64,000 nucleotides of DNA, taken from the NCBI GenBank assembly GCA_041640715.1, contig JBEPZU010000004.1, positions 1,542-65,541 on the forward strand, read 5' to 3'. Under the pieces are notes generated by a model. The model ran no database searches, had not been told where the DNA came from, and worked only from the letters and a program-made list of their open reading frames with translations. This document shows, in pieces, positions 12,357 through 62,902 of this stretch (position 1 is the stretch's first letter; every line of letters begins with the position of its first letter). Source of the DNA: Thermoproteota archaeon (lineage in GTDB: Archaea; Thermoproteota; Thermoprotei; Gearchaeales; Gearchaeaceae). The position numbers were made by a program, and so were the translations under genes.

Positions 12357-13103
12357 TTATCGACTCAAAATTAAGCTTGAATAGAAATCATTAGCTTTCT
12401 TATAGCTCTCATAAGTACCTATATCGAACCAGTGACCTTTAAGAACATAACCATAGACTTTCTCTCTAGCTATCAACCATTTCGTGAAATGACCGAAAGC
12501 ATCTCGAGGATTCCCTTCTTTTAAATAATCGTGAACCTTCTCTAAGACATTCCTAGGAAATAAATAAATCATCGTGCCTACTAAACTCGATCTAGGATTC
12601 TTAGGCTTTTCTTCAAAGCTTATGACCCTCCCATCCTTATCTAATTCTAAACACGATGCTTCCTTTGTAAGCATAGGATCTCCTACGTCATAAACAGCCA
12701 GGACTGTGGATTTCTTATCGAAATAATAATCAACGAACTCTCTAAGCTCTGAAGTAAAGAGATTGTCGCCTGCTAAAATCATTACATGTTCTCCCTTTAC
12801 TCTAGGAAGAAGTTCAGCTATAGCTTTGATGGCTCCTAACTTTTCTTCCTCTCTCCTAGCAGGTTCAACATTCAATGAAACATTCCTGTATGGTTTTGAA
12901 GAAAGCCAAGCTTCAAATTGATCCTTGAACTTAGCGTTAGTAGATATGATTATCTCACTTATCTCTGGTATCCTTTCCAATTTTTCCATCAAGTATTCTA
13001 TAATCGGCTTATCAGCTATTTTCAATAAAGCCTTGGCTACATTACTAGCTATTGAACCTAAACGAGTAGCAAAACCTCCTGCTAAAATTACAGCAGAGAT
13101 CAT
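12357..13103 (-). CDS. sugar-phosphate nucleotidyltransferase (NTP-transferase family)
   Basis: 248 aa. N-terminal LAGGFATRL (G-x-G-T-R-L) nucleotidyltransferase signature. Confidence 0.7.
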   Translation of the reverse strand: MISAVILAGGFATRLGSIASNVAKALLKIADKPIIEYLMEKLERIPEISEIIISTNAKFKDQFEAWLSSKPYRNVSLNVEPARREEEKLGAIKAIAELLPRVKGEHVMILAGDNLFTSELREFVDYYFDKKSTVLAVYDVGDPMLTKEASCLELDKDGRVISFEEKPKNPRSSLVGTMIYLFPRNVLEKVHDYLKEGNPRDAFGHFTKWLIAREKVYGYVLKGHWFDIGTYESYKKANDFYSSLILSR

Positions 13104-13172
13104 TACTATTTCATAGCTGAAATCCTTTAAAATTTTACTAAACTACAAATTCTTTAATCATAACTAAAGGAT

Positions 13173-14207
13173 TTATTCTTCGAGAGAGAATTTTTCTATT
13201 TCAGCTCTATATCTTAGCTCGACGGCCTGAGCCTTTATTAAAATCAAAGGAAGGTATAATGGCACTATACGCAATATAGGAGCTTTATAAATATCTATAC
13301 GTTCTTTAATCAACGATGCAAAATAGAAACCGTCCTTAATTCCTTTAAATAAAATCTCATAATTCCGTATCGGAGTTCTCATCGAATACCTACACAAAGC
13401 TAAGGTTTTTATTAACTTCCTATATCTACTGTTTGAAATCTCATTTAAAACTAACCAGCCTTTAACCTTATGATACATCGCTAAAGGTTTGAGCTTAGTA
13501 AAGGAAGCGCTTAGTAAGTGATATCCTGCTAACAAAGGTAAAGCTACACATTTATGTCTTGAATTCCAAAGTTTAAGTCCAATGTAATTGTCATCAAAAT
13601 AAAATGTCATGAAATCATGAAAGAGCTTATCTTTAAGACCTGTTTTATGAAGGGCCTCTATGTTATAAATAGAATAAGCCCCAGAAGTATAGCTTACTTT
13701 TAATGTTTTCTTAGCGATCCCTAAGTTCTCGCCCCTATATATAGCATAAGATGCAAGGAATTCATCGACGATAAAACCAAAGTTCTCAATCACGTTCTTA
13801 TCACGATACATGGATAATATTCCTTGAAAAGCCCCTATTTTGTTAAGCACAGATACATGTTCTACTAAAAGCTTTAAGCTCTCCTTAGTAGGAACCATAT
13901 CGTTGTTCATTAAAACAATGTATTTACTTTCAGGATCTCTAGCTCTATATCCTATGTTATTTCCTCCCGTGAAACCCAAGTTTTTGTTTAATCTAATCAA
14001 TTTCTTCCTAATTCTGCCTTTCCTGGATAAGAAATCTTCGATCTTCTCAAAACTTCCGTCATTAGATGCGTTATCTACGACGATTAACTCATAATTGTTT
14101 TCAGGATAATCCAGATCGGTTATGCTTTCTAAAGATTCTAAAGCTACGTCTATAAATTTAGTGCTATTGTAGTTAAGCCATATTATGGATAGCTTGGGCC
14201 AGGTCAT
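13173..14207 (-). CDS. glycosyltransferase family 2
   Basis: 344 aa. LSIIWLNYN...ELIVVDNASNDGS GT2 N-terminal signature. DxD region MNND. Confidence 0.7.
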   Translation of the reverse strand: MTWPKLSIIWLNYNSTKFIDVALESLESITDLDYPENNYELIVVDNASNDGSFEKIEDFLSRKGRIRKKLIRLNKNLGFTGGNNIGYRARDPESKYIVLMNNDMVPTKESLKLLVEHVSVLNKIGAFQGILSMYRDKNVIENFGFIVDEFLASYAIYRGENLGIAKKTLKVSYTSGAYSIYNIEALHKTGLKDKLFHDFMTFYFDDNYIGLKLWNSRHKCVALPLLAGYHLLSASFTKLKPLAMYHKVKGWLVLNEISNSRYRKLIKTLALCRYSMRTPIRNYEILFKGIKDGFYFASLIKERIDIYKAPILRIVPLYLPLILIKAQAVELRYRAEIEKFSLEE

Positions 14208-14226
14208 GAAAACAAAGAAAATGGGT

Positions 14227-18761: not shown

Positions 18762-20261
18762 ATGGCAGAAGTTCTACTTCATTTTGCTCTCCCATTTGCG
18801 TTTACTGCTCCATTGCTTGGATTTAAAAGAGGACTTTTGATAGGTTTGATAGCATTATTGCCAGATCTAGATGTGCTTTTCCAAATTCACAGATCGATCA
18901 CACATTCTATGATTTTTCTACTCGCTTTAGTTTTGCCGATTGTGATATTAGTGGCTTATAAATCACCTAAGCTCAAAGTTACTGCAATAGCAGCTATTCT
19001 AAGCCTTCTAAGTCATCCAGTACTGGATATGTTGCAGACATATACACCGATATTCTATCCTGTTTTGAAGGATTCACTATTCATTGAAGTGAATGCTGGA
19101 ATTTTAATAAACAGTTCAAACCCACATCCAATCTTAAATCCATATCTAAACGTCGAAGTTAAGTGGATGGCTACCGAGTTTAAGCCTTTTAAAAGCCTTG
19201 ATGGACCTTTATTTACAAGCCAAAATCTACCCATCTCAATAGCTTTGATCTTAATGCCTATCGTTTACAGATTTGCCTCGATGAAACATATCAAAAAGAA
19301 CCAATTGAGCAAACCAAAGGATTTGTTGGATCAAACTATACTGCTTGTGCAAGATCCTATTCCACAAAACCCAGCCATTTCAAAGGAGGAAATCACCGTA
19401 GTGATACCAGTTTTAAATGAAGCTGAAGGTATAGGTAAAGTCATCGACGAGATAAAGCAAGAGGGTTACAATAACATATTGGTGATAGACGGTTATTCGA
19501 GCGATAATACTGCTGAAGTTGCGATGAGCAAAAACGTTAAGGTAATACGTCAACATGGAATAGGTAAAGGAGGCGCCATCAAAACAGCACTTGAGCATGT
19601 TAATACTCCATACATTCTCTTAATGGATGGCGATTATACATATGATCCAAAGGATATCAAGCATATGCTAGTTTATGCTAAAAAATATGATGAAGTGATA
19701 GGTTCAAGAGTACGTTCCAAAGCCATGAGTTTATTACATAGAATAGGCAATAGGATCATTAACTTGACATTCAACCTTTTAATGGGTACTAGCCTTAGCG
19801 ATGTATGTAGTGGAATGTATCTAGTAAGGACTGAAGCCTTGAAGGATCTCGAAATAAAAAGCAGAGATTTCAGTGTGGAAGTTGAAATAGCAGCTCATAT
19901 AAGTCATTCAGGTAAGATCACTGAAGTTCCTATAAATTATAGGAAAAGGATTGGGAAAAAGAAGCTCCAAAGCTTTCGAGATGGGCTCGTAATACTTCGC
20001 ACTATAATATGGTTGGCGATGAATTATAATCCTGTAATGCTCTTTGCTTCTTTAGCTTCCATCTTAGCTATTCCTGGCTTAATTATTACTCTAAGAGAAC
20101 TTTATTTAAGATATCTTTACGGAGCTGAAGCTTGGTCTTTTGGCATGGCATGGTTAGGGTTATTTCTACTCGTAATAGGATTGCAAGGAATTACAATCGC
20201 AATAATATCCTTGATGTTAAGGAGGATGGAAATTAGGATACTACGGAACCTTAAAAAATAA
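18762..20261 (+). CDS. fusion protein: N-terminal YdjM/DUF457-like membrane-bound metal-dependent hydrolase domain + dolichyl-phosphate-sugar-synthase-type GT2 domain + C-terminal TM helices
   Basis: 499 aa. His-rich membrane N-terminus (HFALPF, HRSITHSM, SHPVLD). GT2 core ITVVIPVLNE...VIDGYSSDNTAEVA...LMDGDYTYDP. Two C-terminal TM helices. Confidence 0.6.
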   Translation: MAEVLLHFALPFAFTAPLLGFKRGLLIGLIALLPDLDVLFQIHRSITHSMIFLLALVLPIVILVAYKSPKLKVTAIAAILSLLSHPVLDMLQTYTPIFYPVLKDSLFIEVNAGILINSSNPHPILNPYLNVEVKWMATEFKPFKSLDGPLFTSQNLPISIALILMPIVYRFASMKHIKKNQLSKPKDLLDQTILLVQDPIPQNPAISKEEITVVIPVLNEAEGIGKVIDEIKQEGYNNILVIDGYSSDNTAEVAMSKNVKVIRQHGIGKGGAIKTALEHVNTPYILLMDGDYTYDPKDIKHMLVYAKKYDEVIGSRVRSKAMSLLHRIGNRIINLTFNLLMGTSLSDVCSGMYLVRTEALKDLEIKSRDFSVEVEIAAHISHSGKITEVPINYRKRIGKKKLQSFRDGLVILRTIIWLAMNYNPVMLFASLASILAIPGLIITLRELYLRYLYGAEAWSFGMAWLGLFLLVIGLQGITIAIISLMLRRMEIRILRNLKK

Positions 20262-20264: not shown

Positions 20265-21734
20265 TTGAGCTGGATTTTAAACGAAGAAGTTTTAGCAGTA
20301 ATATTAGTCATAGTGATAATTTCAGGCATAATTGCAACCATTCAAGTTTTCAACCCACAAAACAACATAGAAAGTTTCTCCGAGCTTGGACTATTAGGTA
20401 AAAGAGGTATGATAGGAGATTATCCTAGGCAAGTAGTAGCTGGTCAACCTTTTCTCTTATACATTTACATAGGTAACCATGAAGGTAAAACAGTCTATTA
20501 CAAAATCCTCGTCAAAACAGGAGATAAATCTTCCGTAATAAATGAAACCACTCCTTTAAACGCTGAACCAATAATGGAGTTTAGAGTTGTTCTTACTCAT
20601 AACTCATCCATAAAAATCCCAGTTAACATAACACTAGAGCAGCCAGCAACCAACTTAAGGCTCGTCTTCGAGATGTGGATCTATAACGAAACATCTGGGA
20701 ATTTCATATACTACAATCGATGGAATCAGCTCTGGCTCAATGTCACAGGTGGGTTGATGAGCACTGGTGAAAGTCAAAAGACAAAACAAACCTTAAGCGA
20801 AGATCTTGAAAAAAGAATAATTGAGGGTTATTTGTCTATAAGGAGAGCAGAAAGAGATGGAGGAAACGTCTCTGAGATGGTTAATCTGATTAACCAAGCT
20901 ATACAGCTCGCTTTCAAAGGAGATGAAGCCAATGCGAATGAACTTATAGATGAGATAATAGCCATGGAACCAATTGTTTCAAGGCTTGGATTGGAGACAT
21001 CAAGGATGAAACTTTACACCAACATAGCAATGTTAACAGCGATCTCATCTATAGGCATAACTAGCTTCATTTTCTTAAGACAAAGAATATGGATTTACTG
21101 GGCTAGAATTCATAAAGATTGGAAGATTATTTCGAAGAAAAACAACATGAAGCTTAGCAATTTAGAAAAAATCATCCTAAATGAAATCAAGAATAAAGAA
21201 ACTCGATTAGGAGAAATCGTATTCTCTCCTACAATGAAATACAAAGCGCATGAAATCGCAAAAACTATTTACAAATTAGCTAGAAAGGATGAAATTAAGC
21301 TAATCGATCCTAAACCACCATTGAATTTCTTAAGGTATATTCTATCGAGATATAACCTAGGTTTTGCGATAATTACTTCATTAGTAGCATTGGCTATACT
21401 TTCAGTTTACGGCTCAGATTCCTTTTCAGCTTTAACATCTTTGAGGATCATCTTAGGTTCGCTTTTAGTGCTTTTCATGCCAGGTTATTCTCTCATAGAA
21501 GCCCTATATCCCAAAGAAGAAGATCTTACACCCCTTGAGAGATTAGCTTTATCTATAGGTCTTAGCTTAGCGATCGTGCCCCTTATAGGCTTGGTGCTCA
21601 ATTATACTCCTTGGGGTATAAGGCTTGATCCCATTCTGGTTGCACTTTCAACGCTCACGTTGATTTTAATGTTCCTATCAAGTTATAGGAAATTTGAGGT
21701 TCTAAGGTTGAAGGTAAGCACTACAAATGTTTGA
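20265..21734 (+). CDS. membrane protein: N-terminal TM helix + sequon-rich extracellular domain + wHTH-like segment + C-terminal polytopic domain (DUF1616-like); paralogous to 62899..63501
   Basis: 489 aa. C-terminal block FMPGYSLIEALYPKEEDLTPLERLALSIGLSLAIVPLIGLVLNYTPWG aligns with the 62899 ORF. Confidence 0.5.
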   Translation: MSWILNEEVLAVILVIVIISGIIATIQVFNPQNNIESFSELGLLGKRGMIGDYPRQVVAGQPFLLYIYIGNHEGKTVYYKILVKTGDKSSVINETTPLNAEPIMEFRVVLTHNSSIKIPVNITLEQPATNLRLVFEMWIYNETSGNFIYYNRWNQLWLNVTGGLMSTGESQKTKQTLSEDLEKRIIEGYLSIRRAERDGGNVSEMVNLINQAIQLAFKGDEANANELIDEIIAMEPIVSRLGLETSRMKLYTNIAMLTAISSIGITSFIFLRQRIWIYWARIHKDWKIISKKNNMKLSNLEKIILNEIKNKETRLGEIVFSPTMKYKAHEIAKTIYKLARKDEIKLIDPKPPLNFLRYILSRYNLGFAIITSLVALAILSVYGSDSFSALTSLRIILGSLLVLFMPGYSLIEALYPKEEDLTPLERLALSIGLSLAIVPLIGLVLNYTPWGIRLDPILVALSTLTLILMFLSSYRKFEVLRLKVSTTNV

Positions 21735-22455
21735 TCGAAATTTAGTGTATGGTTTAAGTCTAGTCTCTTTCGGATCGATCTTAAGCATAGCTTCGTATTT
21801 TATCTTAGAAAACATACCCTTAACAGCTTTGGGAATAGGCTTGATTGTATTAGGCTCAGCGTGGGCAATGATACCACCATATCCTTTGCCTAAGGATACG
21901 ATCATAGAATTGATCAAATCATCATGCAGTAATATAGAAGCCTTGTTAGAAGCATTAGGGATATTCGAAAAGGCCATCTACATACCATCTAAAGAAGGAA
22001 GGGTCTTGGCCTACGTACCTATTAAGAAATCAGGAAATGTTAGTATTGATGAGATAAGCAATAACTTAAACAAAATGATTTTCAAAAGCAAAGAAAGTCT
22101 TGGAATAATTTTAGCCCCGCCTAAAGCTGGAATAGGAAATCCGCATCCAGTAGGAGAAATCGGTTCTGATCTAACCACATTACTTGAACATGCCCTCGTA
22201 GATTCTGAGATTGCTTCTTCAGTCAGCGCAGTACAGAGCGAAGAAATCGTAGTAGTGGAGATAAATAAGCCTAAAGGCGATGTAGATTACCGTAGATTTA
22301 GAATTGTCATGGGTTCATTGCCTTCATGCATAGCAGCCCAAGCTGTAGCGGCATTCTTCTCTAAACCTGTTCAAATAATCGAAGAAAGGAAAGAAGGGAA
22401 TAGCTTAATAGTCAACTTAAAGGTCTTGGATTGGAAAGACAGTACTTATATTTAA
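21727..22455 (+). CDS. hypothetical membrane-anchored protein
   Basis: 242 aa. Two N-terminal TM helices then a soluble domain. Start overlaps the upstream stop. Confidence 0.4.
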   Translation: MFDRNLVYGLSLVSFGSILSIASYFILENIPLTALGIGLIVLGSAWAMIPPYPLPKDTIIELIKSSCSNIEALLEALGIFEKAIYIPSKEGRVLAYVPIKKSGNVSIDEISNNLNKMIFKSKESLGIILAPPKAGIGNPHPVGEIGSDLTTLLEHALVDSEIASSVSAVQSEEIVVVEINKPKGDVDYRRFRIVMGSLPSCIAAQAVAAFFSKPVQIIEERKEGNSLIVNLKVLDWKDSTYI

Positions 22456-22676
22456 TTAGTCTAGCACTTCTCATGATGATCACCGTTTCAGCATTGGCAG
22501 CTCTGAACGAGAATAGATTGGATTTTTACCTGAGTATTTTCACGCTCATATATCTAGTTACCAACTTGACCTTCAGACCTAGAAAAAGGACGTTTGATTT
22601 CATTGCTTTGTTTTTATTACTTATATTCGTGTACATAACGATCACTAAGATCTTAGAAATCCTCATTTTAACTTGA
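22431..22676 (+). CDS. small hydrophobic protein
   Basis: 81 aa, three predicted TM segments. Overlaps both neighbours, compatible with operon coupling. Confidence 0.3.
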   Translation: MERQYLYLISLALLMMITVSALAALNENRLDFYLSIFTLIYLVTNLTFRPRKRTFDFIALFLLLIFVYITITKILEILILT

Positions 22677-24556
22677 AAAGAAAAACTTTAGTAAAGTCGT
22701 TTACAATAGTAGCCGCAATATCGATAGTGATACTCCTGCTTTTTTCATCGCTAATACAGCCGCCGATTCCATTTAGGGCTATACTTAGGCATGTTGACCC
22801 AAGCTCTGAAAACAAGCAGTTTCCGTTCTCACTTTTCTTGGTTTTTCAGATCAGTGAATTACTAAAAAGCTTGATAAATGGTAATTTTAGAGATGCATCT
22901 GAAAAATTGAAAAATTTGAAAAACATTAGCATACCAGAAGAATATCGTTTCATATTCAACAGGTTCAATGAGCTCTTAGAGGAAATTTCAAACCAGCTTA
23001 ACGCGACTAAGTACTTACTAGATCAAGCAGAAGAACTAATAATAAATGGTAAAAGCGAAGATGCTAGATCTTTACTGAACGAAGCGTCGCTTAAGCTAGC
23101 TTCTGCAAATATAACTTATATCGAACTCAGAGTAGCTTTTAATGAATTCGCTAAGACGTTTGGGCTACCTATTGATCGGCTTCAAAAACTCATAGATAGA
23201 TTAGGCGAGGTGATCAATGAGTATTATGATAGACTTCTCAGGTTGTTTAAAATGATCCAGGATCAAAGACTTCTTGAGGATACGTTCTTAAGCATCAACG
23301 TAACTCCCAAAACAATCTGGACTGGAGGAAATTTAGAAATTAGCGGTACGCTTTATACAAACAATACCTTTTTAGCGAATAAGACATTAGAAATACTCCT
23401 TGACGAAAGCCCGCTTACTAAAGTTTTAACTAATGAAAGAGGTGAGTTCAAAATTAAGGTTAAGATACCATATATTTACAAACCAAGCATTATTCTCAAA
23501 GCTAGGTACATTCCTACAGGATTTGACAGCGAGATTTACAAACCAACAGTTTCAAACAACGTGACGGTTAAACTCCTTTACATTCAACCAATCATAAAAG
23601 TTGAAACAATAGGCAAAGCGCTACCAGGTAAAACCTTCGTTTTGAATGGCTACGTAGAAACCAATAGGTCTTTACCATACACTAGCTTGCTAATCTCATG
23701 GACTGGAACCTCTTTGAATGCGACTCTTAATGAAGGAAAGTTCAGTATTGAGTTATATACACCTGCAAATATACCTGATGGAGAATACGAATTGAGGATC
23801 AAAGCACCTCCATTCGAAATCTTTGCGCCTGCTGAGATAACCCTTCTAGTTAGAGTAGAGAGAATACCTCTTAATTTTGAAATACAGCAGCCAGGCGTGA
23901 TCATTGCAGGTTTAGCTTCACAAATACAAATTAAACTCGTTGACGAAGAAAACGTAAACTTCACGGCTAGATTGAGCTTCATGGATCAAATCTATACTGT
24001 CAATGCAAGCACGCAAGCAAGCTTTAATTTAGTTGCTCCATTAACAGTTTTGAGCGGATATCATCACTATAAAATAACTATATTTCCAAGTTTACCTTGG
24101 TACAAAAGCTCAGAATTTGAAGGAAGCATACTAGTGATAAATCCGCTGACGATCTTGGTTCCTATTATAATATCCTCAGTCATGACCTTTGAGCTCCTCA
24201 AGAGAAAAAGAAAGAAGATCATTGAAGAACCTTACCAAGAACAAAAGGTATCAGAACAAGCGATTACAAGAGTGTATTCAGAAACCTCGAAGTTCAAGGA
24301 GTTAATCGATTTATATTGGCAAGCAGTAGCGATAGTAAGCGAGATTACCAGCATTGAAATGAAACCAAGTATGACCCTGAGAGAATATCTCGAATTTACG
24401 GGGCCTAAATTAAAAGAATTAAAAAAAGCCTTCGAAATTATTACGATAGCTACTGAGAAAGCTATTTATGCTCCTTTAGTTTTGAATGAAGAAATAGAAG
24501 CTACAATGAAAGCGTTTGAAGAGTTAAAAGTAATGTATGTCAAAGTTCAACTTTAA
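22673..24556 (+). CDS. surface-exposed membrane protein: N-terminal TM, coiled coil, Ig-like beta-rich repeats with many N-glycosylation sequons, TM, cytoplasmic DUF4129-like C-terminal domain
   Basis: 627 aa with no cysteine. At least 11 N-x-S/T sequons. TM helix then KRKRKK then a C-terminal domain containing MTLREYLEF (DUF4129-like). Confidence 0.5.
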   Translation: MKRKTLVKSFTIVAAISIVILLLFSSLIQPPIPFRAILRHVDPSSENKQFPFSLFLVFQISELLKSLINGNFRDASEKLKNLKNISIPEEYRFIFNRFNELLEEISNQLNATKYLLDQAEELIINGKSEDARSLLNEASLKLASANITYIELRVAFNEFAKTFGLPIDRLQKLIDRLGEVINEYYDRLLRLFKMIQDQRLLEDTFLSINVTPKTIWTGGNLEISGTLYTNNTFLANKTLEILLDESPLTKVLTNERGEFKIKVKIPYIYKPSIILKARYIPTGFDSEIYKPTVSNNVTVKLLYIQPIIKVETIGKALPGKTFVLNGYVETNRSLPYTSLLISWTGTSLNATLNEGKFSIELYTPANIPDGEYELRIKAPPFEIFAPAEITLLVRVERIPLNFEIQQPGVIIAGLASQIQIKLVDEENVNFTARLSFMDQIYTVNASTQASFNLVAPLTVLSGYHHYKITIFPSLPWYKSSEFEGSILVINPLTILVPIIISSVMTFELLKRKRKKIIEEPYQEQKVSEQAITRVYSETSKFKELIDLYWQAVAIVSEITSIEMKPSMTLREYLEFTGPKLKELKKAFEIITIATEKAIYAPLVLNEEIEATMKAFEELKVMYVKVQL

Positions 24557-25526
24557 TCCCATCCTATTCAGCGTTGCCCTAGCGATACTCTTCATTTTAA
24601 TAGCTATAGCTTTGCTGCCTGCCCATGAGGACTTCCTAATAGCAAATCCATATTGGAATGGCTTACAAACTTTTTCTAAGACAGTTGATCTCAATGTCAT
24701 AAACATAGAGCATGAAATGATCATTCCAGAAAAAACGGTTCTCTTCTTGATAGGCCCTTCCTTAAATCTAACGCAAAATCAAATCGAAATGTTGAGAGAA
24801 TATGTAATGAATGGGGGAGAACTCGTCCTAATGGATGAGACTGGTATTATAAATGCGCTCCTTTCAAATTTAGGGCTTGGTATTAGCGTCGACGGAAATT
24901 TAATGCTAGATGCTTTATTTTATCATAGGAGCTGGAAGTTGCCTAGGATAATCAACATAAAGGAAGATGAGCTTACAGCAGGGGTTGAAAACATCGTACT
25001 CGACCTCCCTTCTGTACTTAGAGTTAAGGATCCAAACGTTAAAATCATAGCTTATTCTTCAAGCTTTAGTTTCCTCGATATAAACAAGGACTTTAAACCT
25101 TCAGATGATGAACCGCTTGGACCTTTTCCTGTAGCGGCTAAAATAAGCTATGGTAAAGGAGTCATATTGATCTTCTCAGATTCCAGCATTTTTTTGAACA
25201 GCATAATTAATCTAGGAGATAATCCCAGATTATTGCAAAACTTAGTTAAAGATAGATCTGTCTATTTAGATATTAGCACTTGGAAATTAACACCTAGAGA
25301 GAGCTATAGAAATGCTTTACTGAGCTTCTATGCGATCCTATCAGCACCAGAATTTAAGTATAGCTTGGCTTTAGCAATACTAGCAATCATCTATGCGACG
25401 AAACCGAGAAGAAAAACAAAGATTGAAATAGATGAGATTGAAGAAACCCTTAAAAAGCATCCTGACTGGGATGGGCGTATACTTAAATTACTTAAAGAGC
25501 TAAGAGATAGATATACAGCAAAATGA
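24537..25526 (+). CDS. DUF4350-like membrane protein (GldG-like domain flanked by TM helices)
   Basis: 329 aa. N- and C-terminal TM helices. Central VLFLIGP...GGELVLMDE pattern typical of DUF4350. Confidence 0.5.
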   Translation: MSKFNFNPILFSVALAILFILIAIALLPAHEDFLIANPYWNGLQTFSKTVDLNVINIEHEMIIPEKTVLFLIGPSLNLTQNQIEMLREYVMNGGELVLMDETGIINALLSNLGLGISVDGNLMLDALFYHRSWKLPRIINIKEDELTAGVENIVLDLPSVLRVKDPNVKIIAYSSSFSFLDINKDFKPSDDEPLGPFPVAAKISYGKGVILIFSDSSIFLNSIINLGDNPRLLQNLVKDRSVYLDISTWKLTPRESYRNALLSFYAILSAPEFKYSLALAILAIIYATKPRRKTKIEIDEIEETLKKHPDWDGRILKLLKELRDRYTAK

Positions 25527-26437: not shown

Positions 26438-26439
26438 TC

Positions 26440-33745: not shown

Positions 33746-33764
33746 AATACTTCATTTTGTAGAT

Positions 33765-39026: not shown

Positions 39027-39041
39027 ACTTGAAGGCTAAGA

Positions 39042-46668: not shown

Positions 46669-46671
46669 TTT

Positions 46672-47760: not shown

Positions 47761-47886
47761 CATAGAAGTTTCAATGATGAAGAACTGGCTTATAGACAAA
47801 AGTTGAACTTTATGGCCGCACCGTTAAGACGCCTTTCAGAGATATTAAGATTTTATCTTAGCGCTAAGACAAGAAATTAAAGCCGA

Positions 47887-48200
47887 TTGCTCTTTTTCTA
47901 TATAACATATGAATGCAACCTAAGATGCAAGCATTGCAATTTGTGGTTAGATCACGACCATGAAAGTGAGATGGATCATGAACAGATTAGGAAACCCTTT
48001 ATTGAACTTGTAAAGACTGGAGTCAAAGAAATCACCACACGTATATATCCATGTGGCATGTGGTTGAATCGGTAGAGCACATTGATGATACTGTACTAAT
48101 GAATGGTATTTCTGAAAGGTTAAGAGGGAGGGAAAATAGCGAGCTACTGGGATGTTTTGGATGTTATGGACAGACAATATAACCATGGAAACCATGTACC
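47887..48200 (+). pseudogene. remnant of a radical SAM (SPASM-type?) enzyme gene
   Basis: 62-aa ORF with CNLRCKHCNLW (CxxxCxxC radical SAM cluster motif), then stops. Downstream frames retain a Cys-rich fragment (GCFGCYGQ). Confidence 0.4.
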
Positions 48201-48269
48201 AGAATCAATAACTCTCTGTTAAGAATACCAGGAAATAAAAGAATAGTTAAATTAAAGCGTAAAGCGTGC

Positions 48270-49013: not shown

Positions 49014-49016
49014 TCC

Positions 49017-49892: not shown

Positions 49893-50961
49893 AAAGATGA
49901 ATGCATTAATACATGGCTACTTTGGCATGGGTAATGTTGGTGACGAAGCTATTCTAAGTGCATTAATCGAGGAGTTAAGGTCTAGGGATATTGAGCCCAT
50001 TGTTCTTTCAGCAGATCCTGGCCGAACAGCTAGATTGCATGGGGTCCAATCTTGTCGTGAAAAAATTCTTTCTCTAAGATTTTGGAGATATTTCCTCAAA
50101 TCTTCCACGCTTATATTCGCTGGCGGAGGAAGGTATGGCAAGAGTACTCTAAGGAGGATGTGCATACTAGCCCTGCTAGCTAAAGTAATGGGTAAAAAGG
50201 CTGAATTCAGAGCACAAGGCATATATCCCTATGAGTGGAGCGGCTTACCAATAATTACTGATACGCCAAAGCCATTCGACAGCCTCACTAGGTTATTTAT
50301 TAAATTAACGTTCACGATCGCTGATAAGGTAACAGTAAGAGATGAGTTCTCAAGGCAGGTGCTATCACTATGCGGAGTATTAAGAAATGTTGAAATAGAG
50401 GACGATCTTGCGTTCACATTAAAGCCTATCTACGAGAAATCATTGCACATTCTTTCTAAGCATGGCGTAAGCTTAGATCATAAACCATTGATAGGTGTGA
50501 ATCTCCGCACTTTACATCCAAAAATCAGACATAAACTTGTTGACGTGATGTCTGAATTTCTCAATTGGTTAGCATCATCGGGTGCAGAATTGGTCTTCGT
50601 GCCATTTGGCTACGGGAGCAGACCGGAGAGGTTCTTTGATGATGATCTAATCATAGCCAAAGAACTTAAGAAGCGTATGAGGAATGCAGAAAGACTGAAG
50701 GTCATCGATAATGAATATAAGCCTCAAGAAATCATGGGTTTTTTTAGGTTCTTTAACCTATTTGTAGGTATGAGATTCCATTCAATAATCTTCTCAATAA
50801 TGATGGAAGTCCCCACAATAGCGATGATTTATGACACAAAGACAATGGAGCTTTTAAAGAGTAAAGAAGTTAATCGCTGTATTCCAGTCAAAATAGATGA
50901 GCTAAATATAGATGTGTTAAAGAATGCTACTAGAATTCTCTTAAGTTCAAAGCATGAATGA
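49876..50961 (+). CDS. polysaccharide pyruvyl transferase (CsaB/WcaK family)
   Basis: 361 aa. N-terminal HGYFGMGNVGDEAIL signature. Confidence 0.7.
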   Translation: MRLEYRKMNALIHGYFGMGNVGDEAILSALIEELRSRDIEPIVLSADPGRTARLHGVQSCREKILSLRFWRYFLKSSTLIFAGGGRYGKSTLRRMCILALLAKVMGKKAEFRAQGIYPYEWSGLPIITDTPKPFDSLTRLFIKLTFTIADKVTVRDEFSRQVLSLCGVLRNVEIEDDLAFTLKPIYEKSLHILSKHGVSLDHKPLIGVNLRTLHPKIRHKLVDVMSEFLNWLASSGAELVFVPFGYGSRPERFFDDDLIIAKELKKRMRNAERLKVIDNEYKPQEIMGFFRFFNLFVGMRFHSIIFSIMMEVPTIAMIYDTKTMELLKSKEVNRCIPVKIDELNIDVLKNATRILLSSKHE

Positions 50962-57085: not shown

Positions 57086-57110
57086 ATTAATCAGAAATCC
57101 AATAGACAGG

Positions 57111-58190: not shown

Positions 58191-59534
58191 ATGCTTCATC
58201 TTATCACAGTAACTCAAACTCCTCTCGTCAGATTCAAGTTGAGCTTGGATCAGCTAAAGAAAAAATACAAAACATTAGAGCCAAACTTGAACATGTTAAA
58301 AGAAGGAGAAGAATATGTCATTAGCCCAGGAGGCGTTACAAGAACGGTATATCCTTTTCTCCTACGCCTTTCTAATGAAAAGCCTCATTGGGTTTCTTTG
58401 AATCCAAACGCGCCTCCTAAAATCTTCGTTAATAACATAACCATACACCATGTATCAATTCCTGCAGAGGTCGTTAAAGGATACGGAAAAGCTAAAGAGA
58501 TAATATGGCAAGTCTTCCATAGAATAAAGGAAGGAATCTGTCAAGCTCAAGATTTGATGTGGAGTGATGAATTCGCTGATTATATATACTATAATAGAAG
58601 GGTATCGAAGAAGGTTATGGAATTAGATAAAGAAGAAGACTTCGATCTCATATACATACATGATTTCCAGCAAATACCTTTAGGAAGCATGCTCACAACT
58701 GTGAAGCCTAAAATTTTCAGATGGCACATACCTATGGAGCAAATACCCAATGCTTGGCTTAGCTCTATAGAGACTTACCTAAATAGCTATGATTTAATAA
58801 TCATCAGCAGCGAGAGATATTCTAAGGTACTTGAGAAATTGAAATACAAAGGAAAGATAGCAAAAGTATACCCTTTCATCGACCCAAGTCAATATAAATA
58901 TCCTTCACAAAGAGAAGTAGAGGAATTCTCTGCTCGTTATGGCATTTCAAACGAAGATAAAGTAGCCTTAGTAGTAGCTAGAATGGATCCTATGAAAGGG
59001 CAAGATAGAGCGATAAAAGCCTTAAAGATGGTTAAAAAAAGAATAAAAAAAATCAAACTAATGCTAGTAGGAAACGGTAGCTTCTCCAAGACAGGAATAG
59101 GTCTTGACAAAGCTGAGAGATGGTCTAGTCATCTTAAGAGCTTAGTTAAAGAGCTAGAGCTGGAGAAAGAGGTCATATTCACAGGTTATTTAAATCAAAG
59201 AGATTTGGAGAAAGCTTATAGCAGAGCGGATTTGGTCATTTTGCCTTCTGTTATTGAAGGATTTGGACTGGTAATAATAGAAGGATGGCTCTACAAGAAG
59301 CCTGCGTTGGTAAGCAATAAAGCTGGAGTAGCAGACTTAATCAACAACTATGAAAATGGAGTCTTGATAGATCCCGATGACATAGAAGGAATAGCTGAGG
59401 AAATCGTGAAAATCCTCTCAGATGAGAAGTTATCAGAAGAATTAGGCAAATCTGGCTTCGAGACTTCTAAGAAATGTCACGTCGAGGAGGGGATAAAAAA
59501 TGAATTAGAAATACTTCAGAGCATTTCAAAATGA
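58191..59534 (+). CDS. glycosyltransferase family 4 (TreT/sucrose-synthase-like size)
   Basis: 447 aa. EGFGLVIIEGWLYKKPALVSNKAG motif. Confidence 0.7.
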   Translation: MLHLITVTQTPLVRFKLSLDQLKKKYKTLEPNLNMLKEGEEYVISPGGVTRTVYPFLLRLSNEKPHWVSLNPNAPPKIFVNNITIHHVSIPAEVVKGYGKAKEIIWQVFHRIKEGICQAQDLMWSDEFADYIYYNRRVSKKVMELDKEEDFDLIYIHDFQQIPLGSMLTTVKPKIFRWHIPMEQIPNAWLSSIETYLNSYDLIIISSERYSKVLEKLKYKGKIAKVYPFIDPSQYKYPSQREVEEFSARYGISNEDKVALVVARMDPMKGQDRAIKALKMVKKRIKKIKLMLVGNGSFSKTGIGLDKAERWSSHLKSLVKELELEKEVIFTGYLNQRDLEKAYSRADLVILPSVIEGFGLVIIEGWLYKKPALVSNKAGVADLINNYENGVLIDPDDIEGIAEEIVKILSDEKLSEELGKSGFETSKKCHVEEGIKNELEILQSISK

Positions 59535-60313
59535 TCTACATAACTCTACAAGATATAGGCAACCTCTTATCGATGATGACCCCTTTATTTTATTTCTTAG
59601 CCATAATTTTGGCTACATGGATATTCTTGAAGGTTTTTTTAGTTATAATTAAAAGGGCTCTATCCTTCTTGCCCCCTTTAATGTTGGCACACATAGAAAA
59701 AGCATTGACTATATTAATCTGGTTTATAGGGTTGTCGATTGCGATCGCTCAATTAGGGTTGAGAATAGAACTGTTATTAGCACTCCTTGTTTTAGGAGGA
59801 ATAGCCGCTATAATAGCTTTCAGGAATGTATTAACCAATATCGCAGATAAGTACTTCTCGGATGTTTACGTTCCTTATAAGATAGGTGATAAGATAAGCA
59901 TAGGTGGCTATACTGGCATAGTTACAGAAATAAATCCTATCGTGACCGTACTTATGACAGAAGAAGGTAAGATAATCTCAGTACCCAATTCTCATTTTGT
60001 CACAAACATTCTAGTCAACGAATCTGAAGCAGCATGGAGTGAAATCATAATACCAATACAGATAGATAAATCCTTAGATGTGGCTGAAGCAGAAGCTGAA
60101 ATACTCAAAAGGGTGAATAAGCTGAGAGCTAAGCTGGACGAGAGATTTCCTCCCATGATACACACGAAGAAGATCTCAGGAAATGTCTCAGAATTATCTT
60201 TGATAGTTAGAATCAAGAATCCCCTCGAAAAGAACATTCTCGCTAATGAAGTAAATAAGAGAGTTCATGAAGCTCTTGAATATTTGCGCTCAAAAACGAA
60301 GAGTAAAACTTAA
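59531..60313 (+). CDS. small-conductance mechanosensitive channel (MscS family)
   Basis: 260 aa. Three N-terminal TM helices plus the MscS beta-domain signature GDKISIGGYTGIVTEINPIVTVLMTEEGKIISVPNS. Confidence 0.7.
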   Translation: MIYITLQDIGNLLSMMTPLFYFLAIILATWIFLKVFLVIIKRALSFLPPLMLAHIEKALTILIWFIGLSIAIAQLGLRIELLLALLVLGGIAAIIAFRNVLTNIADKYFSDVYVPYKIGDKISIGGYTGIVTEINPIVTVLMTEEGKIISVPNSHFVTNILVNESEAAWSEIIIPIQIDKSLDVAEAEAEILKRVNKLRAKLDERFPPMIHTKKISGNVSELSLIVRIKNPLEKNILANEVNKRVHEALEYLRSKTKSKT

Positions 60314-60337
60314 GGGAATGATTTAAGCTGAATACTA

Positions 60338-61906
60338 ATGGAAGCATTAGAAATAGGCAGGTCGTTTGCAAAAGGAGCAACATACATATTCGGCGGAAAA
60401 GTAATATCGCACGGCATAGGCCTGATAGGAAATGTTTTAATAGCGAGACTTTTAGCGATCGAGTATGGTAGTTCTGAACCATTAGGATGGCTTTTAGTAT
60501 TAACTTTCATACCTGCACTAACCACTTTACTAGGAGATTTTGGAGTTAGCTACGGGGTGACGAATCGATGCGCAAAGTTAGTTAAAGAAGGAAATTACGA
60601 AGAAGCTTCTAAGTACGTTTGGTCAATGACTTTCTATACTTTGATTCTCTGGTCTTTCTATGCTACTATAACGCTTTTCATAGGTGAATGGTTAGCTTTA
60701 AACCTTTATTCTAAGCCAGAAATAATACCCTTTATTCATCTTGTAGCGATAGGAATAGTAAGTAGTGCGCTTTATTATAACATAGCTCAAACAGTTTCTT
60801 TGATTTTAGATAAGACTTGGATATTCAGTCTAATGATAATTATATACTCAACAACGCAGGCCTCATTGATTCCTTTAGCTCTTATAACGGGCTTTAAATT
60901 TTACGGAGTAGCCTTTGTTTATTTCATTTTAATGCCCCTTTTATCTTCTATACCGGGCTTGATTATTTTATTCAGATACTTTAAGATCAAGAAGCTAGAT
61001 TTGCCCAAATTAAAAGAGACGATTAAATTCGGTTTTCCCATGGCTGCTTCGAGCTATGTAGCTATGCCAGTCACAAGAGTTTATGAAGTATTGATTTCAA
61101 GATTTGCTAGAACAATGGAGCTCGGGAATTTCTTTGTGGCACAAAAGCTAGAAGCACTAGTAGGTGTCTTCCTTTATCCAATAAATACTTTGATGTTCGT
61201 CAATTATTCTAAGCTCAATAAAAGTGAGGATTTAAACATTGCTTTAAACTTCACCATTAAAATAATAGCATATTTCATAGCTCCCATATCCATCTTCACT
61301 TTCTTCTTCTCAAAGCAACTCATAGTAGCTCTGTTCGGTCGTTATTACAGCGAAGGTTGGATATACCTAAGTTTAATCGCAATATATTGGTTAGGATACT
61401 GCGCAGGAGGAACAGCGATATATCATTTGCTAGCCTCGCAAGGCAATACGAAAGAGGTATTTAAATTCTCAACGATAAGCGTTTTCATAGGACTTGCCTT
61501 ATATTTAGTACTCATACCTATGTTCTCTATAGTAGGCGCACTTATTTCCTCGATAATAGCTGGATGGCCTTCTTATTTTTTAGCTTTAAGGTATATTAAA
61601 AATAAGTTAAACGTGAAAATTAAATTCACCGAAATCCTCAAGATCCTTTTGGCCAGCATTTTGTCTGTAATGCCTTCATTTCTGCTATGGCTCTCATTAA
61701 GCAGTATTTTAAGTATAGGTGTATTCCAATATTACACATTACTATTTTCTTGCATTTTAATTTCGTTATCGATCTATGTGCTGACTACAAAGCGGATGAG
61801 TATAATAAGAGATTCAGAAATGGATTTTATAGAAAGATCTTTGAAGCAAATTCCCTTTGCTGGTAATTTAATAAGCTTAGTTCTAGGCTTTTATAAAAAA
61901 TTATGA
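60338..61906 (+). CDS. Wzx-type oligosaccharide flippase (polysaccharide biosynthesis protein, MOP superfamily)
   Basis: 522 aa. About 14 TM helices. N-terminal pattern typical of PF01943. Confidence 0.7.
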   Translation: MEALEIGRSFAKGATYIFGGKVISHGIGLIGNVLIARLLAIEYGSSEPLGWLLVLTFIPALTTLLGDFGVSYGVTNRCAKLVKEGNYEEASKYVWSMTFYTLILWSFYATITLFIGEWLALNLYSKPEIIPFIHLVAIGIVSSALYYNIAQTVSLILDKTWIFSLMIIIYSTTQASLIPLALITGFKFYGVAFVYFILMPLLSSIPGLIILFRYFKIKKLDLPKLKETIKFGFPMAASSYVAMPVTRVYEVLISRFARTMELGNFFVAQKLEALVGVFLYPINTLMFVNYSKLNKSEDLNIALNFTIKIIAYFIAPISIFTFFFSKQLIVALFGRYYSEGWIYLSLIAIYWLGYCAGGTAIYHLLASQGNTKEVFKFSTISVFIGLALYLVLIPMFSIVGALISSIIAGWPSYFLALRYIKNKLNVKIKFTEILKILLASILSVMPSFLLWLSLSSILSIGVFQYYTLLFSCILISLSIYVLTTKRMSIIRDSEMDFIERSLKQIPFAGNLISLVLGFYKKL

Positions 61907-61915
61907 TAAGTTAGA

Positions 61916-62902
61916 ATGACCTACAGAGCCATGAAAACCAACATCGTAGGCTTCGGGGTAATGGGGAGAAACCATTTCAGGATACTCAGAAAATTCTGTG
62001 AAGTCACAGCTGTGTGTGATATAGATATTAACAATAAAGAAGAGATCGAAAAATATTCAAAATTTTACCTTGATTTTGAGGAGATGTTAGAAAAGGAAAA
62101 GCCAGACATTCTTGTCATAGCGGTACAACCTCAAAATAATTTAAGTTTGCTCAAGAAAGCCTTGGAGAAGAATATCAAGAATATTTTAATAGAAAAACCT
62201 TTGACTACTTTAAAGCAACTTAACGAAGCCTATGAAATATTGGAATTGGCAGAAAAGAAAGAGGCTCTTGTAATGGTAGGCGAGATAACTTGCTATGACC
62301 CCGTTACGATAGCGTTAAAGAAAAACATCGAAACGCTTGGCTATATAAAGGCGATAGCTACTATAAGATCCGGTAAATATCCTTTTAGATTCACGGAGGT
62401 AGGGGTGAATGAAGACTTATTAATCCATGACATTTTCTTCGCTAGGTACATTCTAGATTGGCAAAAACTTTCGATCGAAAATCACATAAAAGCCTCTCTA
62501 TTTAGAGATTCTCAAATAGATTTCATCGCGATCAATGGTGTCTTCGAGAAAGGGACCAGATTAATATCGATAGCCTCTTGGCTGAGTGAAGAGAAGATAA
62601 GATTCGCCACCGTGATTGGAGAAAAAGCAATAGCTCAATTGAATTTCTTAGATGAAAATAAATATGCTCGAATATTGCCACCGGAAGTCGTCAAAGAAAT
62701 AAGATACGGTAGCATAGAAGAATTCAGAAAGATAGAAAGGGAAAAATATAAATATGCTAAAGAATTGGAGTTGGAACGAATTGAACCTTTAGAAAATGAG
62801 CTCAGATACTTCTTAAGATGCGTAGAAAAAAACGAAGAACCGCTTACGAACTTGAGGAGGGAAATAGAGACGCTTGAAATACTCAAAAAGACCTTAGAAT
62901 GA
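61916..62902 (+). CDS. Gfo/Idh/MocA-family NAD(P)-dependent oxidoreductase
   Basis: 328 aa. N-terminal IVGFGVMGRNH Rossmann motif and EKP motif (ILIEKPL). Confidence 0.75.
   Translation: MTYRAMKTNIVGFGVMGRNHFRILRKFCEVTAVCDIDINNKEEIEKYSKFYLDFEEMLEKEKPDILVIAVQPQNNLSLLKKALEKNIKNILIEKPLTTLKQLNEAYEILELAEKKEALVMVGEITCYDPVTIALKKNIETLGYIKAIATIRSGKYPFRFTEVGVNEDLLIHDIFFARYILDWQKLSIENHIKASLFRDSQIDFIAINGVFEKGTRLISIASWLSEEKIRFATVIGEKAIAQLNFLDENKYARILPPEVVKEIRYGSIEEFRKIEREKYKYAKELELERIEPLENELRYFLRCVEKNEEPLTNLRREIETLEILKKTLE

Follow-up and report, generated by a model that had tools for sequence, protein, structure and literature searches.

We asked what kind of surface-glycan pathway is encoded in a gene-dense region of an uncultured, thermophilic Thermoproteota archaeon (GenBank assembly GCA_041640715.1, contig JBEPZU010000004.1, positions 1,542 to 65,541; this 64,000-nucleotide stretch is called the window, and all positions below are counted from its first letter). 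In archaea, the glycans of the cell surface influence how stable the S-layer is, how viruses attach and how cells recognise each other, and to our knowledge no Thermoproteota glycosylation locus outside the Sulfolobales has been worked out. A sequence-only reading had proposed that 12357-62902 holds about 45 glycan genes, among them genes for a Wzx flippase and a Wzy-like protein of 602 aa, and had likened the set to bacterial O-antigen and capsule loci more than to the archaeal agl pathway. With confidence somewhat better than even, we consider the region a surface-glycosylation locus of archaeal type, composite in make-up and of a kind that thermophilic Thermoproteota share, and not a bacterial-style Wzx/Wzy locus.

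Glycan gene content

All 45 open reading frames (ORFs) of at least 100 aa in 12357-62902 were scanned with Pfam (with ORFs followed to 63501), and key ORFs were scanned with NCBIfam. About 30 of the 45 carried a glycan-family signature and about 15 had no glycan-family evidence in either database. The density of glycan genes is real and far above chance expectation, and the description as a dense cell-surface glycan locus stood, although with about 30 supported genes rather than 45.

The glycosyltransferases (GTs) comprised seven intact GT2 genes and one remnant (39027-39732) where nine GT2 genes had been listed. The eight GT4/GT-B genes of the same list resolved into five clear GT4 genes, two weak matches and one very weak match (E=0.058); in addition, a GT4 N-terminus is duplicated as a fragment of 113 aa. 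Five methyltransferase genes were found. Of three FkbM-type genes one is intact, another (FkbM-like) is frameshifted and the third is a fragment; a Methyltransf_11 gene is likewise frameshifted, and the fifth gene is of the Methyltransf_24/CmcI type. The FkbM assignment thus held for one intact gene, while the supposed TylF-type gene did not match the TylF Pfam model and was of CmcI type instead. The NTP-transferase, CE4 deacetylase, short-chain dehydrogenase/reductase (SDR) epimerase, Gfo/Idh/MocA oxidoreductase and Wzx flippase were all confirmed with Pfam or NCBIfam.

The 602-aa protein is modelled as a GT-C enzyme

The AlphaFold2 (AF2) model of the 602-aa protein, built from 22 sequences, had a pLDDT of 81.5 and a pTM of 0.85 and showed roughly 13-15 helices plus a domain at the C-terminus. 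We searched it with Foldseek against PDB entries up to April 2026 and inspected the top 50 matches for Wzy, WaaL and RodA. Ranks 1-17 were all GT-C enzymes (yeast and human STT3, PglB, AftA, ALG12, Pmt4 and EmbB), AftA being within the top three. Their probabilities ran from 0.69 to 1.0 (14 at 1.00, the best 16 at 0.98-1.00), their E values from 1e-4 (STT3, 8age) to 1.4e-2, and their TMq values from 0.24 to 0.44, or 0.36-0.44 excluding EmbB. Ranks 18-19 were unrelated transporters with a probability of at most 0.13, and more Emb and Pmt4 entries followed further down. No Wzy, WaaL or SEDS/RodA protein was among the top 50.

Sequence models gave no match. The protein and its 21 aligned homologues had no Pfam match at E<=1, with no Wzy_C, O-antigen-polymerase, PF14296, EpsG or STT3 domain; NCBIfam gave no match to the protein, and a profile of the family found nothing among PDB sequences or in Pfam. 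Among ten distant family members scanned, two showed weak, near-threshold PMT_2 matches and one a weak partial EpsG match (27.5 bits vs 30.1). The motif WWD[YWF]G was absent from all six frames of the window by regular-expression search, the sole WW.xG string being antisense. On the AF2 model, the Foldseek matches, the PMT_2 matches and the lack of WWDYG, the 602-aa protein is a predicted GT-C-fold enzyme that is neither AglB nor Wzy. The protein is polytopic and no AglB, as had been stated, but its Wzy-like label is not supported, since the leading matches of the model were all GT-C enzymes. It would act as an extracytoplasmic transferase using a lipid-phosphate-sugar.

The family is rare, with 31 homologues in a word index and 122 representative clusters among 1.84 billion proteins. 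All named homologues are archaeal (Desulfurococcus mucosus, Vulcanisaeta distributa, Thermoproteaceae and Bathyarchaeia), and none of the word-indexed homologues came from Sulfolobales. When genome contigs were searched with the GT-C alignment profile, one locus was found, in a Thermoproteaceae metagenome-assembled genome (MAG). In UniProt, the homologues from D. mucosus and V. distributa bear the label 'RgtA/B/C/D-like'. Among the invariant residues are E121, W135, N142, Y145-N146-P147, Y183, T211-P212 and D478-P479, and E69 and D184 are near-invariant. E121 lies in a conserved loop of 40 residues that is predicted to be outside by the positive-inside rule.

A 380-aa protein is encoded directly downstream of the GT-C gene in the window, in the Thermoproteaceae MAG (30% identity) and in V. 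distributa (395 aa). It may be GT-B-like; its single-sequence AF2 model reached a pLDDT of 35.

Predicted lipid-linked sugar synthase, flippase and decoration enzymes

The gene at 18762..20261 encodes, as judged from its domains, a polyprenyl-phosphate sugar synthase. Residues 209-485 align to residues 8-294 of the 327 of ArnC (9bhc, E 5e-18), covering the GT2 domain and a transmembrane (TM) hairpin (segments 425-443 and 467-485). In NCBIfam it scored 216 bits against AglJ (cut-off 325) and 99.9 bits against the haloarchaeal dolichyl phosphate (DolP)-hexose transferase. We infer that it is the Dol-P-sugar source of the locus. The protein at 60338-61906 belongs to the Wzx/MOP family by its Pfam scores and is predicted to flip a lipid-linked glycan; a crude hydropathy scan gave nine segments at a stricter threshold and 13 overlapping ones at a looser threshold. 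Since a polyprenyl-phosphate-sugar synthase, a MOP flippase and a GT-C protein are all encoded in the locus, a three-component extracytoplasmic system is suggested, of the kind known from AglD/AglR/AglS, GtrA/B/C, ArnC/ArnT and the GT136 system (PMC3892788, PMC11127046).

The polysaccharide pyruvyl transferase belongs to PF04230 (PS_pyruv_trans, 110 bits vs 25.3), which upholds the family named earlier but not the CsaB/WcaK assignment, as it scored 138.6 bits against CsaB (cut-off 213) and 36-39 bits against WcaK models (cut-offs 399-727), too low for orthology. A search of PDB sequences gave no match to it, and every close homologue bearing a source name was archaeal. The main text of a 2019 review on glycan pyruvylation mentions no archaeal case. 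Because the enzymes for de-N-acetylation, methylation and pyruvylation have neither a signal peptide nor a TM segment, we place these steps in the cytoplasm.

Directly 5' of the pyruvyl transferase gene (48270-49892) are genes for a 247-aa P-loop protein and a soluble 291-aa protein. The latter shows weak sulfatase/EptA-like (phosphoethanolamine-transferase) similarity around an 'SDHGE' motif. Both are kept in V. distributa (L008, 8395-9958; 56% for the 291-aa and 45% for the P-loop protein), and the 291-aa protein also on a JGI contig (L005, 9123-10004). The pair may provide a phospho- or sulfo-decoration step.

Nucleotide-sugar supply

Three rhamnose genes (rfbA, rfbC and rfbD) had been reported. 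RmlA and RmlD scored above their cut-offs; RmlC was supported by Pfam and fell under the NCBIfam equivalog cut-off (Table 1). No RmlB gene was found in the window with NCBIfam, and tblastn found no remnant in the intergenic gaps. The SDR gene that overlaps rmlD was tried as RmlB and ruled out, given 79.5 bits vs 365 and no TDE motif. This protein has 'YAKAN' where the catalytic YxxxK is expected, and is an atypical family member translationally coupled to rmlD. If the rhamnose pathway is complete, RmlB must be encoded outside the window. The NDP-sugar pyrophosphorylase at 12357-13103 and the GT2 at 13173-14207 stayed below the NCBIfam equivalog cut-offs, and the best score of any window protein against the AglF model was 178 bits vs a cut-off of 400.

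The locus thus appears to carry genetic potential for rhamnose, O-methylation (FkbM and CmcI-type) and pyruvylation (PF04230). The earlier suggestion of a methylated, pyruvylated, rhamnose-containing glycan keeps this potential, with a rhamnose pathway that is locally incomplete.

Conservation of the locus in other archaea

We compared the window with loci from a Thermoproteaceae MAG (L001), an ENA contig (L002), the MAG GCA_021324265.1 (L003 and L004, JAJPJK010000009.1), a JGI contig (L005) and V. distributa CP002100 (L007 and L008). A core of GT2-GT4-GT-C-380aa-(MT11)-GT4-CE4-GT-B-GT2-GT2 was collinear in L001 (30-53% identity), L002 (39-52%) and V. distributa (L007, 30-55%), and in part in L005 (27-46%). 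The block 33765-39026 alone was 42-53% identical in L001, 39-52% in L002 and 39-55% in L007. Homologues of the membrane GT2 and the GT4 (27847-30242) stood at the same position in L001 (53%) and L005 (46% and 29%). The block of GT4, FkbM, P-loop protein, alkaline-phosphatase-superfamily (AP)-like protein and pyruvyl transferase recurred in V. distributa (L008; 54, 40, 45, 56 and 47%), and in part in L005 and L006. Beyond V. distributa, the blocks were thus seen in collinear order on several contigs from hot springs.

In V. distributa DSM 14429 (CP002100, ~426-467 kb), both blocks, a MOP flippase and the DUF1616/DUF4129 module lie within ~40 kb. The locus type is therefore already present, uncharacterised, in the published genome of a cultured species, and a literature search returned no paper on the V. 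distributa locus. The two loci share the collinear GT4-GT-C-395aa-GT4-CE4-GT-B-GT2-Wzx and GT4-FkbM-P-loop-AP-like-PyrT blocks with the module nearby. They differ in that amino acid identity is 25-56%, block order is changed, PaREP1, ATPase_2 and thermopsin genes are inserted in V. distributa, and no rml genes occur in the 40 kb inspected there.

The GlmS encoded upstream of the island was 80% identical to that of GCA_021324265.1 and ~60% identical to those of Nezhaarchaeales, Thermoprotei and Nitrososphaerota, with no Sulfolobales among the best GlmS matches. These relatives, and the taxa having the shared modules (Vulcanisaeta, Thermoproteaceae and Desulfurococcaceae), rule out the Sulfolobales as the frame of comparison that had been chosen. 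GCA_021324265.1 is labelled 'Geobacterales bacterium'; its content is archaeal-type (DUF1616/arCOG01314 module), and the label is almost certainly wrong.

Upstream of the island, GCA_021324265.1 was collinear and 52-94% identical (AIR synthase-like, Suf, Rieske, NifU and GlmS genes), and nucleotide collinearity stopped at window position 9230, directly after glmS. The 9493-18395 block is missing from that site in GCA_021324265.1, and the DUF1616/MoxR-module proteins were 27-50% identical. With collinear flanks at 52-94% against a module at 27-50% and an absent block, the locus occupies a conserved chromosomal site and is evolving much faster than the core genome. In L003 (11821-12179) glmS is followed by a homologue of the 110-aa ORF at 18396-18728. 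As glmS directly precedes this homologue in the relative, the ~9-kb block thrC-thrB-HAD-NTP-transferase-GT2-OSBS-GNAT-rmlA-rmlC is probably an insertion or rearrangement specific to the window lineage.

The flanks were those named in the earlier description, with PALP, GHMP and HAD genes (thrC-thrB-HAD) upstream and FEN1, whose N-terminus begins at ~63520, downstream. Composition was uniform across the window (GC 36%); GC was 0.37 on both island and flanks, and GC3 was 0.36 in the island vs 0.31 in the flanks. Coding density of the region was 86%, and almost every gene in 16397-63501 pointed in one direction. A recent bacterial import was ruled out by the archaeal origin of the named close GT-C and pyruvyl-transferase homologues and by the host-like composition. 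The host itself is archaeal, as indicated by FEN1 and an intron-containing tRNA-Leu. This tRNA-Leu(UAG), encoded by a second tRNA gene of the window (7241-7342, + strand), has a 17-nt anticodon-loop intron and lies between a NifU-like gene and glmS; it was detected by Rfam (43 bits) and not by default ARAGORN.

The arCOG01314 module as a possible acceptor

Between the synthase and the conserved core lies a module encoding DUF1616 (489 aa), a membrane protein of 242 aa, the product of a short conserved ORF within 22456-22672, a 627-aa protein with an Ig-like/DUF4129-like region and two TM segments, DUF4350, a MoxR AAA+ ATPase and DUF58. The arCOG01314-associated predicted secretion system (Makarova et al. 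2015) comprises DUF4350, MoxR ATPase, vWA/DUF58, pfam07760/DUF1616 and Ig-like ectodomain proteins (PMC5898192, section 3.2, Table 2). By domain content, 20265-27723 is a predicted member of this system and is not concerned with glycan biosynthesis. Module order was the same in GCA_021324265.1 (L003, 12989-20045) and V. distributa (L008, 17807-21029), and the module stood next to glycan genes in three lineages. The predicted ectodomains of the 627-aa and 489-aa proteins had 2.4-2.7 N-X-S/T sequons per 100 aa vs an island mean of 0.48, with z values of 3.5 and 1.9 for the two against shuffles. This enrichment makes the two proteins plausible N-glycosylation substrates.

Proposed pathway

In the surface-glycosylation pathway that we propose, precursors would come from the upstream GlmS, NDP-sugar pyrophosphorylases (two in all), RmlA, the RmlC-like cupin, RmlD, the SDR protein and the Gfo/Idh/MocA oxidoreductase, with dTDP-rhamnose made only if RmlB is supplied from elsewhere. 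About 15 cytoplasmic GT2/GT-B enzymes would assemble one or more oligosaccharides on dolichyl (pyro)phosphate. The cytoplasmic CE4 enzyme would de-N-acetylate N-acetylhexosamine, FkbM and CmcI-type enzymes would O-methylate, and the PF04230 enzyme would add a pyruvate ketal. The lipid-linked glycan could then be flipped across the membrane by the MOP/Wzx-family transporter. On the outside, the 602-aa GT-C protein would transfer sugar from a Dol-P-monosaccharide supplied by the AglJ/ArnC-type GT2 fusion, and an AglB encoded outside the window would attach the glycan to surface glycoproteins. Among the likely acceptors are the ectodomain proteins, rich in sequons, of the arCOG01314/MoxR/DUF1616 module. 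The families and folds, the absences from the window, the collinearity and the decay are observed, whereas it is deduced which lipid carries the glycan, in what order the steps run, which donors are used and where the glycan ends up.

Precedents exist for the individual steps. In Haloferax (Hfx.) volcanii the low-salt pathway includes homologues of RmlA-D, GTs and Agl15, which is Wzx-like, and AglD, AglR and AglS add a Dol-P-sugar outside the cell (PMC3892788). Sulfolobus has a hexose-charged Dol-P of unassigned role (PMC11407970), and three-component GT-C systems have been described (PMC11127046).

Several points weigh against the proposed pathway. At least five genes are broken, so that part of the pathway is perhaps inactive, or these are assembly errors. 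The missing RmlB means that rhamnose production is not assured. No initiator (AglH/WecA- or WbaP-type) and no AglB were found in the window, which leaves the N-glycosylation link indirect. The TM-scores of the 602-aa model to solved GT-C structures are moderate (0.36-0.44). Finally, the locus may serve several unrelated products, as modules are separate on some contigs and non-glycan genes are interspersed.

Alternative explanations

We think it unlikely that the locus directs Wzx/Wzy-dependent synthesis of a polymerised, methylated, pyruvylated, rhamnose-containing heteropolysaccharide (exopolysaccharide (EPS)- or capsule-like), with the 602-aa protein polymerising flipped repeats. In its favour, the locus has a flippase of the Wzx family, numerous GTs and a pyruvyl transferase, as is typical of bacterial EPS and capsular polysaccharide loci, one distant family member has the partial match to EpsG (Wzy-type), and some GT-C enzymes (Emb, Aft) do elongate polymers. 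In Sulfolobus (S.) acidocaldarius the EPS contains minor rhamnose, and the GT-rich cluster saci_1904-1927 has been proposed for its synthesis (PMC9549778). However, the leading fold matches were all GT-C_A enzymes, with Wzy, WaaL and SEDS proteins absent from the top 50, and archaeal protein-glycosylation clusters share the gene content. Pfam scans of the window ORFs found no Wzy_C or O-antigen-polymerase domain, no chain-length regulator (Wzz/PCP) and no initiating phosphoglycosyl transferase, whether Bac_transf PF02397 (WbaP/PglC) or Glycos_transf_4 PF00953 (MraY/WecA). Given the fold result and the lack of Wzy, Wzz and an initiator, Wzy-type polymerisation is the weakest of the rivals that propose a mechanism. 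Quite improbable, in our estimate, is a lipid-anchored glycan (a lipoglycan or complex glycolipid) like mycobacterial lipomannan and lipoarabinomannan, in which a lipid would be glycosylated inside, flipped, and extended outside by the GT-C protein from a polyprenyl-phosphate-sugar. Thermoplasma lipoglycan is a precedent for such an archaeal glycan. The core opens with a 3-TM GT2 matching Glyco_transf_21 (ceramide-glucosyltransferase-like), the GT4s, synthase and GT-C protein mirror the PimA/Ppm1/PimE-Mpt-Aft logic, and AftA ranks high among the fold matches. Yet STT3 and PglB score equal to or better than AftA, nothing in the window identifies a lipid acceptor, and the surface proteins linked to the locus are rich in sequons.

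The region might also be not one system at all, but a hotspot downstream of glmS that gathers decaying, independent operons (nucleotide-sugar genes, at least two glycan pathways, the arCOG01314 module and MscS), which we hold to be very unlikely. The contrast between the flanks and the module in identity to GCA_021324265.1, the absence of 9493-18395 there, the differing module order in V. distributa, the modules on separate contigs, the fragments, frameshifts and partial duplication, and the mildly raised GC3 in 36988-52335 all speak for a hotspot. In V. distributa too, however, both main blocks lie within ~40 kb of the flippase and the arCOG01314 module, 16397-63501 is almost wholly co-directional, and a hotspot is compatible with our preferred explanation, which is already composite. 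Least probable, and only a slim prospect, is that the GT-C protein itself carries out the last transfer, as an oligosaccharyl or glycan transferase (OST) other than AglB that moves the flipped glycan en bloc to protein. STT3 and PglB are its best fold matches, and its gene lies within a conserved operon-like block of assembling GTs. The rhamnose-containing low-salt glycan of Hfx. volcanii is attached independently of AglB by an unidentified OST (PMC3892788), and the low-salt cluster includes HVO_2052, a PMT/STT3-like protein without assigned function (PMC5898192). Against this stand the lack of WWDYG, a C-terminal domain of just ~120 aa, the nearly equal matches to the single-sugar enzymes ALG12, Pmt4 and AftA, and the dedicated Dol-P-sugar synthase, which fits a GT-C protein with a monosaccharide donor better.

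A broader idea, to which we give little credence, is that the 602-aa protein founds an unclassified, archaea-restricted GT-C family carrying out an AglB-independent extracytoplasmic step in crenarchaeal-type glycosylation. In one version, a Wzx-flipped glycan could be moved en bloc to protein by the GT-C enzyme, which would then be a candidate for the kind of OST sought for the Hfx. volcanii low-salt glycan. In another, it could be the archaeal counterpart of the eukaryotic lumenal ALG GT-C enzymes that use Dol-P-hexose, which would give a function to the hexose-charged Dol-P of Sulfolobus. In either version, the sequon-rich proteins encoded by the linked arCOG01314 module would carry the product. 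Only if the GT-C protein is an AglB-independent transferase or such a lumenal-ALG analogue would the locus be of considerably higher interest.

Comparison with known systems

The closest known system is the Agl pathway of Haloferax, with the aglB cluster (AglJ/AglD as Dol-P-hexose GT2 enzymes, AglR as a Wzx-like flippase and AglS as a Dol-P-Man transferase on the outside) and the low-salt genes agl5-agl15 (Agl11-14 being RmlA-D homologues and Agl15 the flippase). Both have nucleotide-sugar (dTDP-rhamnose) genes, GT2 and GT4 enzymes, a methyltransferase, a Wzx/MOP flippase, a Dol-P-sugar synthase and a polytopic outside transferase, and both vary between relatives (PMC3892788, PMC11407970). The present locus differs in belonging to another phylum, in being much larger (~15 GTs), in adding a pyruvyl transferase, CE4 and FkbM, and in lacking RmlB within the window. 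As no window protein reaches an Agl equivalog cut-off (AglJ 216/325; AglF 178/400), the likeness is one of functional analogy and not of membership. The contrast with archaeal agl loci drawn in the sequence-only reading is nonetheless not supported, because characterised N-glycosylation clusters have the same make-up (PMC3892788) and the window has an AglJ/ArnC-type synthase.

GtrA/GtrB/GtrC, ArnC/ArnT, Ppm1 with PimE/Emb/Aft, and Citrobacter ORF15/ORF14/ORF12 (GT136) likewise combine a polyprenyl-phosphate-sugar synthase, a flippase candidate and a GT-C enzyme with a small C-terminal extracytoplasmic domain (PMC11127046). Unlike in these three-component systems, the synthase is encoded 10 kb from the GT-C gene, the flippase is of the large MOP/Wzx kind more typical of oligosaccharides, and the GT-C protein lies outside Pfam families. 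Bacterial Wzx/Wzy O-antigen and capsule loci have in common with this one Wzx, rml genes, sets of GT2 and GT4 enzymes and genes for pyruvyl and methyl decoration, but no Wzy, Wzz/PCP or WbaP/WecA-type initiator was found here, and the named close homologues of the genes tested are archaeal; the resemblance claimed to such loci is not supported. The cluster saci_1904-saci_1927 of S. acidocaldarius is also a large GT-rich cluster of a thermoacidophilic archaeon with a proposed surface/EPS role (PMC9549778). None of the word-indexed homologues of the 602-aa GT-C protein came from Sulfolobales, and the likeness is one of description, the saci cluster itself being uncharacterised.

The locus is of an expected kind, that of large, variable archaeal surface-glycosylation loci, and not a new principle. 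It recurs in cultured V. distributa and yields concrete candidates for experiment, and its unexplored parts are a GT-C family without a Pfam model, an archaeal pyruvyl-transferase clade and the conserved arCOG01314 link.

Gene decay and other features

At least five genes are broken by fragmentation or frameshift (Table 1), and their debris lies in the large gaps between genes. Either the decay is real, as variable glycan loci commonly show, or the MAG assembly contains errors. The intact Methyltransf_11 homologue in L002 has 189 aa. Direct repeat D1 (40938-41201 vs 42573-42836, 78% identity) duplicates the 5' part of the GT4 gene at 42555-43745.

Table 1. Features of the region, in order along the window.
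Feature	Position	Strand	Basis and remarks
GlmS (glucosamine-6-P synthase)	7411..9231	+	Pfam SIS + GATase; conserved left anchor, outside 12357-62902
NDP-sugar pyrophosphorylase	12357-13103	-	Pfam NTP_transferase 125.6 bits
GT2	13173-14207	-	Pfam Glycos_transf_2 62.4 bits
OSBS/N-succinylamino-acid-racemase-family enolase	14227-15342	-	NCBIfam menC_lowGC_arch 336 bits vs 200
GNAT-like protein, 302 aa	15333-16241	-	no Pfam match; Q/RxxGxG-like motif read in sequence
RmlA, long form	16397-17461	+	TIGR01208 rmlA_long 516 bits, cut-off 320; PDB RmlA 3hl3 E 2e-55
RmlC-family cupin	17529-18068	+	Pfam dTDP_sugar_isom 49.9 bits vs 27; TIGR01221 rmlC 45 vs 155.75
YdjM-like membrane domain fused to polyprenyl-phosphate GT2 (AglJ/ArnC/DPMS type), 499 aa	18762..20261	+	Pfam YdjM + GT2
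Predicted arCOG01314-type secretion/surface module, 6-7 genes, ~7.5 kb	20265..27723	+	Pfam
Membrane GT2, GT21-like, 3 TM	27847-28950	+	Pfam, TM scan; start of conserved core
GT4	29124-30242	+	Pfam
Polytopic protein with predicted GT-C fold, 602 aa	30265..32073	+	AF2 + Foldseek; C-terminal alpha/beta domain ~120 aa
Conserved GT-C partner, 380 aa	32086..33228	+	Pfam Glycos_transf_1 only E=0.058
Methyltransf_11 gene, frameshift (33540) or internal loss	33232..33764	+	103-aa ORF matches Methyltransf_11; C-terminal part in other frame, matches L001
GT4	33765-34943	+	Pfam; conserved block
CE4 deacetylase	34937-35566	+	Pfam; conserved block
GT-B	35539-36762	+	Pfam; conserved block
GT2	36988-38046	+	Pfam; conserved block
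GT2	38043-39026	+	Pfam; conserved block
GT2 N-terminal remnant	39027-39732	+	tblastn; start of variable GT stretch 39027..43745
GT2	39733-40719	+	Pfam; variable stretch
GT4 N-terminal duplicate fragment, 113 aa	40872-41213	+	direct repeat D1
GT2	41299-42291	+	Pfam; variable stretch
GT4	42555-43745	+	Pfam; variable stretch
FkbM-like methyltransferase, frameshift near 45070-45100	44463..45319	+	Methyltransf_21 22.4 bits, about at cut-off; continues in other frame
Decoration block: GT4, FkbM, 247-aa P-loop, 291-aa alkaline-phosphatase-superfamily-like, polysaccharide pyruvyl transferase	45553..50961	+	Pfam
FkbM fragment, 100 aa	51040-51342	+	Pfam
Methyltransf_24/CmcI-type (rhamnosyl-O-methyltransferase family)	51577-52335	+	Pfam; TylF Pfam model not matched
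rmlA N-terminal remnant, 17 aa	~52366-52416	-	gap search
RmlD	52970-53875	+	TIGR01214 240.6 bits, cut-off 224
SDR epimerase/dehydratase-family gene	53872-54888	+	overlaps rmlD; 79.5 bits vs 365 for dTDP-glucose dehydratase
284-aa nucleotidyltransferase-like; 208-aa P-loop kinase-like	from 55564	+	weak Pfam/NCBIfam
GT-B-like	57111-58142	+	Pfam/NCBIfam
GT4	58191-59534	+	Pfam/NCBIfam
MscS-type mechanosensitive channel	59531..60313	+	Pfam MS_channel_2nd 42.3 bits; non-glycan
Wzx/MOP-family flippase	60338-61906	+	Polysacc_synt_3 PF13440 61.5 bits vs 23; PF01943 38.5 vs 28.2
Gfo/Idh/MocA oxidoreductase	61916-62902	+	UDP-GlcNAc 3-dehydrogenase-like 142 bits, under 450 cut-off
Second DUF1616 protein, 200 aa	62899..63501	+	Pfam DUF1616 82.8 bits; 4 TM; ends past 62902

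The pair of 284-aa and 208-aa proteins is conserved in L001, where it adjoins the core GT2 (34% and 37%). The ORFs outside glycan families are those of the arCOG01314-type module, the OSBS-family and GNAT-like genes, the MscS channel gene and further ORFs for two proteins with a P-loop, one resembling the alkaline-phosphatase superfamily and one resembling nucleotidyltransferases.

The sole minus-strand unit of the region is 12357-16241, with the GNAT-like, OSBS-family, GT2 and NDP-sugar pyrophosphorylase genes. The OSBS-family and GNAT-like genes overlap by 10 nt and are co-oriented with the GT2 and NTP-transferase genes, and a role in (amino-acyl) decoration of a sugar is conceivable.

At the other end, the second DUF1616 gene overlaps the stop codon of the Gfo/Idh/MocA gene and adjoins fen1. 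Its product has an acidic, helical N-terminus of ~65 aa, possibly wHTH-like, followed by the four TM helices.

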